Source: Escherichia coli
Lineage (GTDB): Bacteria > Pseudomonadota > Gammaproteobacteria > Enterobacterales > Enterobacteriaceae
Assembly: GCF_030013595.1 (NCBI RefSeq)
Contig: NZ_CP122768.1
DNA length: 64,000 nucleotides
Reading direction: 5' to 3' (one strand)
A program made the position numbers and the translations under genes. Under the pieces are notes generated by a model. That model made no database searches. It was not told the DNA's origin and saw only the letters and a program-made list of their open reading frames with translations. Every line of letters begins with the position of its first letter. The stretch's first letter is position 1. This document shows positions 6,800 to 7,071 of the stretch, piece by piece.

Positions 6800-7047
6800 T
6801 AATGGCGATACAGTTGGCTGAGAGCCAGCAGGGGGCAAATCACCTGCAAATAAACACGGCACATGCTGGCGCGCATATCGCGGATGCGTTCGAGGACAGA
6901 AGAACCGACAGGCGGATTCTTCAGCAGCTCATCGTCCATCACAAAACCTTTGACCAGGTATTTCTGAAGCCGATTGAATATTGAGCAGTAGAAAATATCT
7001 GGATTGACAGTATTACGAGGGGTTCGAGAACGTATGAAGAGGCATTT
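6800..7047 (-). pseudogene. rhuM-like gene relic (internal fragment, deletions)
   Basis: Minus-strand translation gives LQKYLVKGFVMDDELLKNPPVGSSVLERIRDMRASMCRVYLQV, which aligns to the intact RhuM at 31079..32128 (QEYLIKGFVMDDERLKNPPIGHSAV...LERIRDIRASERRVYLRV); no complete ORF. Confidence 0.5.
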
Positions 7048-7071
7048 TGGCGGAAGATCACAGGAGTCGAA
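7048..7071 (-). repeat. 24-nt copy of the 3' end of tRNA-Sec (selC): att-type island junction repeat
   Basis: TGGCGGAAGATCACAGGAGTCGAA equals the reverse complement of the selC 3' end as recalled; match stops after 24 nt, so this is not an intact tRNA. Confidence 0.8.

Follow-up and report, generated by a model that had tools for sequence, protein, structure and literature searches.

The 24 nucleotides at positions 7048-7071 of the window (the whole stretch of Escherichia coli DNA analysed here, 64,000 nucleotides of contig NZ_CP122768.1) can be identified with high confidence as the attR core of an integrative island that entered the 3' end of selC, the gene for tRNA-Sec, that is, as the outer junction left by this event. 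The island behind it is a composite selC island of the known tia/LIC type, and the junction as such is an ordinary, already known kind of feature. The features on both sides of the junction are given below with their positions in the window and, where one applies, their strand.

5227-6411, minus strand: setC, sugar efflux transporter, flanking gene, probably backbone (394-aa ORF; annotated in syntenic K-12-type and O17_K12a genomes)
6412-6840: AT-rich non-coding spacer, 33% GC, conserved backbone (part of a conserved stretch of 660 nt)
6841-6969, minus strand: rhuM relic of about 43 codons, N- and C-terminal parts missing (tblastn, Pfam)
7033-7047, minus strand: the 15 nt directly 3' of the selC CCA, in tRNA sense AAATGCCTCTTCATA (native selC 3' flank)
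7048-7071, minus strand: very probable attR core, 24-nt direct repeat equal to selC nt 72-95 (exact match; empty-site similarity ends at 7071)
7072-7206: terminal non-coding island arm, 35% GC (100% identical to strain 2009C-3133 from 7072 on)

The selC repeat and the left border of the island

The reverse complement of selC nucleotides 72-95, taken from the annotated tRNA-Sec of a K-12-type genome, reads TGGCGGAAGATCACAGGAGTCGAA and is found at 7048-7071 on the plus strand of the window, with the tRNA sense on the minus strand. The selC 3' end that the first-pass annotation had placed here is matched at 24 of 24 nucleotides and is present as a single copy in the 64-kb window even when up to three mismatches are allowed; with 0.00 copies expected from 100 shuffles, chance is ruled out as the origin of the 24-mer. 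The intact selC of the relatives that carry the island holds the same 24 nucleotides and also has base 7047 in common with the window, so that the direct repeat amounts to 25 nt and reaches only one base beyond the CCA. The 24-nt repeat starts at selC nucleotide 72, which is the first base of the T-loop in the predicted cloverleaf, and spans the T-loop, the 3' strand of the T-stem, the 3' strand of the acceptor stem, the discriminator and the CCA. This T-loop-to-CCA layout is reportedly typical of one class of tRNA-targeting tyrosine integrases. The absence of an intact selC from the window is likewise borne out, as ARAGORN predicts no tRNA gene in the 64 kb and Rfam none at the gathering threshold.

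The position of the border follows from a comparison with genomes that lack the island. In a megablast search with 6412-7206 as the query, most of the 5426 complete E. coli genomes prove to contain the spacer. The match in island-free genomes comprises window positions 6412-7071 (query 1-660) at 95.6-97.7% identity and ends inside the annotated tRNA-Sec, which is followed by yicJ. Aligned base by base across the junction, the window and the island-free genomes are collinear through ...GGAGTCGAA and diverge at the next base, and in these conspecific empty-site alleles the similarity to the window breaks exactly at the repeat and then runs on into intact selC and yicJ. The K-12-type genomes agree with this picture, since 6412-7071 matches their island-free backbone and their selC is intact and unoccupied. 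A longer, unrelated homology behind the 24-mer is thereby ruled out, as the 660-nt stretch is the native setC-selC spacer of the K-12 backbone; a 24-mer that forms the end of this spacer is what an attR should look like. The proposal that the repeat is of the att type and marks the setC-proximal end of a large selC island therefore holds, both on the similarity that stops at 7071 and on the far end of the island in relatives, where an integrase and an intact selC are found (see below). For purposes of annotation the left border of the island is fixed at 7071/7072.

Three base differences from K-12 are clustered just outside the repeat. A junction at 7035, with the 13 nucleotides TGAAGAGGCATTT travelling with the island, was considered on this account and is ruled out by the island-free strain UID2309220033, which has the exact flank variant of the window beside an intact selC. 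The clustered differences are thus a polymorphism of the backbone. They also bear on the question of how the junction reached this strain. The attR may be genuine but inherited, with flank and island arriving ready-made by homologous recombination from another E. coli. The identical junction is present in 667 of the 5426 complete genomes, which come from varied hosts, and the left flank of the carriers is variable, with ETT2-like genes present or absent and setC present or absent; both observations are in favour of such a transfer, as were the three clustered differences until they were also seen beside intact selC in the island-free strain. We consider an arrival of this kind possible but rather doubtful, and it would leave the nature of the site unchanged: 7048-7071 would still be the attR core.

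In the window, the left flank comprises, in this order, ETT2-like type III secretion genes, nlpA (3371-4189), yicL (4193-5116, minus strand) and setC. The type III secretion genes occupy 41-2567 and include a YopB/SseC-type translocon gene (41-1822) and a chaperone-sized ORF (2070-2567). They are shared with O17_K12a and GON1437 and are absent from several other carriers of the island, which implies that the island sits in more than one type of backbone. An older, degenerate selC repeat was sought in 6412-7047, where local alignments were no better than those of shuffled sequence; in the absence of an outer repeat from this allele, setC may be either backbone or former cargo. In strain 7_56_38A a different selC island, the first gene of which encodes a primase-helicase, leaves a selC repeat of 21 nt at the same relic-side backbone (locus L011, 3636-3656). 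As this repeat starts from the same anchor, its length evidently differs between selC elements.

The far end and the cargo of the island

The right end of the window still lies within the island. The features between the island arm and this end are as follows.

7207-14800, minus strand: first island genes (ORFs; names from a segment of NZ_CP013025.1 that is 99.98-100% identical)
31079-32128, minus strand: intact island rhuM, 349 aa (ORF; annotation of identical DNA)
33545-40046: type I restriction-modification (R-M) genes hsdR, hsdS and hsdM, beside the Kiwa-like genes and rhuM
40828-63376: 21-kb resistance block between two IS1 copies, 40828-41595 and 62607-63376 (alignment to annotated 2009C-3133)
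63426-63554, minus strand: C-terminal fragment of a second tyrosine integrase (tblastn, aa 351-392, 42% identity, E 3e-7)
63783-64000, plus strand: 5' part of tia, cut by the end of the window (identity to 2009C-3133; annotation of relatives)

The far end is seen in the strains 2009C-3133, MEW and GON1437, where an IS1 is followed by a truncated integrase, tia, a phosphoethanolamine transferase gene (eptA-like), a gene for a TPR protein, a 396-aa integrase with the domains Arm-DNA-bind_3, Phage_int_M and Phage_integrase, an intact tRNA-Sec and yicJ. Among complete E. coli genomes the best match to the whole flank is MEW (99.4%). Strain 2009C-3133 has a different left flank and is 100% identical to the window over 7072-32000 and again over 62607-64000 (1394 nt; locus L004, 17279-18672), a segment that comprises the IS1, the integrase fragment and the start of tia. 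In 2009C-3133 this second match stops 5.5 kb short of selC, and on the strength of the perfect identity an intact selC, with the integrase beside it, would be expected about 5.5 kb beyond the end of the window, which would give the island a size of about 62 kb. In GON1437, ISEcp1-blaCTX-M-14, together with one fragment each of IS903B and lamB, splits yicI, two genes beyond selC (locus L006, 42314-49114).

The far end also bears on an alternative in which selC was destroyed, either when the island inserted or through a later deletion, and the 24-mer is what remains of the gene; the strain would then have no intact selC and the repeat would be unpaired. The complete lack of tRNA genes in the window is compatible with such a loss. 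Its probability is nevertheless very low: the three relatives with the island all have an intact selC at the far end (3/3), the right end of the window matches one of them at 100% identity to its very edge, and the break lies precisely at the T-loop, where site-specific integration would place it. The loss of selC would furthermore abolish the synthesis of selenoproteins such as the formate dehydrogenases.

If 7048-7071 is the attR core, the arrangement would result from recombination of a circular island with selC by the integrase, with the crossover in the T-loop, as is established for P4-type tyrosine integrases. The island's own copy of the last 24 nucleotides would rebuild selC at the integrase end (attL), and the original selC 3' end would be displaced, together with the native DNA downstream of it, by about 62 kb to the setC side (attR). 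The rhuM relic would already have been part of this native downstream DNA before the present island entered selC. Read outwards from the island, the layers are the island arm (7206-7072), the attR core (7071-7048), the selC flank (7047-7033), the relic, the AT-rich spacer and setC.

At least two elements have been fused in the island. The integrase fragment at 63426-63554, which was found with the selC-adjacent integrase of the relatives as the tblastn query and is annotated as a partial tyrosine recombinase in identical DNA, marks the seam between a small selC-proximal module (integrase, TPR protein, eptA-like gene and tia) and a larger module with attR at its end. The seam itself retains no att copy: no internal copy was found at up to three mismatches in the window or at up to four mismatches in the loci that cover the island of 2009C-3133. 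As the fragment is only 42% identical to the selC-adjacent integrase and an internal att copy is lacking, attR may have been made by an integrase other than the one that selC now has beside it.

The larger module begins, behind the island arm, with genes for DUF4942, DUF957 and DUF5983 proteins, a CbtA/YeeU toxin-antitoxin pair, DUF987, JAB/RadC, antirestriction, DUF932 and DUF905 proteins, an HTH regulator and a GTPase (7207-14800), which we take to be a gene set characteristic of CP4-type E. coli islands at their non-integrase end. The intact rhuM that the first-pass annotation had noted some 24 kb away beside the hsd operon is indeed present at 31079-32128 on the minus strand, close to the R-M genes at 33545-40046, and its product matches the PADLOC family PDC-S05 (E 8e-167). 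Two Kiwa-like genes lie between rhuM and the R-M genes at 32149-33545, namely kwaB (32149-32991, E 7e-14) and kwaA (32991-33545, E 9e-16), both recognised by PADLOC. RhuM, the Kiwa-like genes and the type I R-M system form a putative defence cluster within the island (31079-40046), and a RelB/DinJ-type antitoxin gene follows the R-M genes at 40113-40619.

The resistance block between the two IS1 copies is missing from MEW, which has a single IS1 at the same spot. By synteny with 2009C-3133 the block contains a mer operon, tniA/tniB, IS1326 and a class 1 integron with intI1 (55032-56045), dfrA1 (54399-54872), aadA1 (about 53515-54306), qacEdelta1 and sul1; at 54868-54939 Rfam places an attI/aminoglycoside leader. 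Compared with 2009C-3133, the segment 41675-56247 has the opposite orientation, and the Tn3-family genes tnpR/tnpA (56736-61093) have only 78-83% identity to those of that strain.

Islands of the P4 type target tRNA genes, with CP4-57 at ssrA, CP4-6 at thrW, and PAI I-536, LEE and SHI-2 at selC. The present island resembles them in its T-loop-to-CCA repeat, in the three domains of the integrase seen in its relatives and in the combination of CbtA/YeeU, RadC, antirestriction and DUF932 genes at the non-integrase end, and it shows no notable departure from them. Closer counterparts are the tia PAI and LIC, the characteristic cargo of which is leoA in the tia PAI of H10407 and a contact-dependent inhibition (CDI) system in LIC. 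Neither CDI nor leoA genes are found in the annotations of the relatives' islands, and CDI genes are seen neither in the window nor in the annotated relatives, which implies that the island is not LIC proper. What it has in common with the tia PAI of ETEC H10407 and the LIC of LEE-negative STEC is the insertion at selC, a mosaic content rich in IS elements and, in the relatives, a tyrosine integrase right behind the intact selC with tia a few genes further on; the order in the relatives is integrase, TPR protein, eptA-like gene and tia. In LIC the integrase lies downstream of selC, tia corresponds to ORF4 and the island is flanked by imperfect direct repeats of 23 bp that match the selC 3' end (PMC6455142), compared with 24-25 nt here; the tia PAI at selC is also flanked by direct repeats (PMC7545054). 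The present island, for its part, carries the cluster of type I R-M, Kiwa and RhuM genes, the IS1-bounded block with mer and a class 1 integron, and a fused second element with a truncated integrase. As an island junction the site therefore carries little weight, selC being among the best-known integration hot spots of E. coli and selC 3' repeats having been published.

The rhuM relic and the resident rhuM islet

A decayed rhuM fragment had been reported beside the repeat over 6800-7071. The fragment is real but smaller, as the only significant tblastn match lies at 6841-6969 and corresponds to residues 125-175 of the 349-aa island RhuM (65% identity over 51 aa with an internal deletion of eight codons, E 9e-17). 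The relic peptide also matches the Pfam family PF13310, Virulence_RhuM, at model positions 50-108 of 252 (E 5.4e-10). From weak similarity and from PGAP annotations in other genomes, the outer limits of the relic can be put at about 6805-7032 at most. It is an incomplete gene, flagged by PGAP at the equivalent place in other genomes as a pseudogene of a 'RhuM family protein'. NCBIfam offers no family for RhuM, for DUF4942 or for the hypothetical gene described below, and the name yicT, for which a literature search gave no support as a K-12 designation of the relic, is not adopted here.

The relic is an old pseudogene of the species-wide backbone and is common also in strains that lack the island. 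Of the 5426 genomes, 3603 carry 80% or more of 6412-7206, a segment that contains the spacer and the relic, and in K-12-type strains PGAP annotates the RhuM pseudogene between setC and an unoccupied selC. Across the genome collection the piece that matches the relic has 94.7-97.1% identity over 69-75 nt. The view of the relic as the scar of an older rhuM-containing element is thus correct in substance, but the scar is not specific to this junction. As part of the backbone the fragment is neither island content nor evidence of a recent event, and it has already been annotated by PGAP in thousands of genomes.

The origin of the fragment becomes apparent from a second allele of the interval between yicL and selC, in which setC and the relic are replaced by a hypothetical gene and an intact rhuM of 345 aa. 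This allele is present in strain WGS1363 and 841 others (842 genomes). The WGS1363-type rhuM begins 52 nt from the CCA end of selC, and about 110 nt beyond its stop codon there is a degenerate selC 3' repeat that reads TGGCG, then lacks four nucleotides, and continues with ATCACAGGAGTCGCA. With selC on one side and the degenerate selC repeat on the other, the WGS1363 rhuM is a one-gene islet bracketed by att copies. Its protein, which like island RhuM is intact, shares 71.5% identity with the latter. The flanks of the islet are related to both ends of the big island: one is 78% identical to window positions 7078-7162 over 88 columns and the other 83% identical to the integrase-side flank over 36 columns, and in each case none of 500 shuffles gave an alignment as good (0/500).

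The relic shares 88.5% DNA identity with this resident, selC-adjacent rhuM (130 ungapped columns, longest exact word 27 nt), compared with 76.1% for the island rhuM (117 ungapped columns, longest exact word 9 nt). On these alignments the relic descends from the resident islet gene and not from the island gene. A different history, in which the relic was copied from the island rhuM or formed a recombination pair with it and so shaped the junction, could draw on their common membership of the RhuM family and on their shared minus-strand orientation, which makes them direct repeats at a distance of 24 kb. This history is extremely improbable, as the relic is found in thousands of genomes without the island, K-12 types included, and the percentages and exact words just given favour the resident gene. 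The earlier suggestion that the two copies could mediate recombination is not upheld either. For RecA-dependent recombination, E. coli requires exact identity over roughly 20-30 nt, and the homologous stretch, about 120-130 nt at 76%, offers at most nine consecutive identical bases, which makes an exchange between the copies implausible.

The descent of the relic from the resident rhuM would be explained most simply by an older element of the same family that left its rhuM at selC. In this scheme, the order of which we infer from the alleles, a selC element with rhuM would have integrated, lost its integrase and most of its cargo and shrunk until only a one-gene islet was left. About 15% of E. 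coli still have this islet intact; in the lineage of K-12 and the window the islet rhuM would then have decayed to about 130 nt. The 15 nucleotides at 7033-7047, a flank that K-12-type genomes and the WGS1363 islet also have behind their intact selC, are probably the last trace of the selC-side arm of this older rhuM element. A third allele is found in 2009C-3133, in strain 2/0 and apparently in EC958 (L003, 7052-7071; L007, 8014-8033; H112 for EC958), where the end of the island joins yicL and the hypothetical gene by way of the old degenerate repeat (GAAG deleted) and both setC and rhuM are absent. The missing rhuM may have been lost by a deletion between the two repeats; alternatively, the old repeat may have been the site at which the island was captured.

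Elements that are flanked by att sites and have no integrase of their own are described as CIMEs in the biology of Streptococcus ICEs. The rhuM islets of WGS1363 and Pseudescherichia vulneris resemble them in being bracketed by att copies and in lacking an integrase, and the arms of the E. coli islet are homologous to those of a full-size island. Unlike in CIMEs, the outer repeat of the islets is degenerate (a deletion of four nucleotides or three substitutions), so that mobilisation may no longer be possible, and the window holds the relic only.

RhuM genes beside selC in the Enterobacterales

A scan for the 24-mer with one genome per species returned at least 120 loci, at least 112 of which have an intact selC. 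Among the 120 matches listed, 24 have a RhuM homologue downstream of selC, which is always on the strand of the tRNA and among these matches usually lies 150-900 nt from the CCA. Of the listed matches with at least 1.5 kb of downstream sequence, 14/92 have RhuM and 31/92 an integrase within 2 kb of selC. The genera include Pseudescherichia, Enterobacter, Pantoea, Erwinia, Yersinia, Hafnia, Morganella, Providencia, Xenorhabdus and Photorhabdus, several of them with fragments only.

RhuM loci downstream of selC in the scan: L015, L022, L024, L031, L044, L047, L053, L059, L075, L085, L091, L094, L099, L106, L120, L126

In Escherichia albertii, Providencia burhodogranariea and Yersinia pestis, selC is followed by an integrase or its remnant and then by rhuM. 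In Pseudescherichia vulneris a one-gene rhuM islet is closed by a degenerate selC repeat, as it is in E. coli WGS1363. Salmonella SPI-3, which is inserted at selC, carries rhuM according to the passage of PMC3680342 that cites Blanc-Potard & Groisman 1997. By this description, SPI-3 and the E. coli locus share the linkage of a RhuM-family gene to selC and a highly mosaic structure; the relic in E. coli amounts to about 43 codons and is not functional. The one Salmonella locus examined (subsp. arizonae, L104) has no RhuM match within the flank covered.

The linkage of rhuM to selC throughout the order, as it appears from genome comparison, is the one result that was mildly surprising. The two intact RhuM proteins of E. 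coli match PDC-S05, a candidate defence family of PADLOC, and RhuM-like proteins have been proposed to be toxins linked to R-M operons (PMC3710099). It is tempting, if speculative, to regard the candidate phage-defence gene rhuM as a long-standing 'first cargo' of selC-targeting P4-type elements across the Enterobacterales, which may survive the loss of the integrase in the form of att-flanked one-gene islets. Incoming selC islands could mobilise such islets in trans or stack against them, and the relic of K-12 would mark the end of this process. More modestly, the DNA just downstream of selC keeps a record of successive generations of related elements, and in many Enterobacterales the gene closest to selC is recurrently one of the RhuM family, which may deserve a comparison of its own should RhuM turn out to act in defence.
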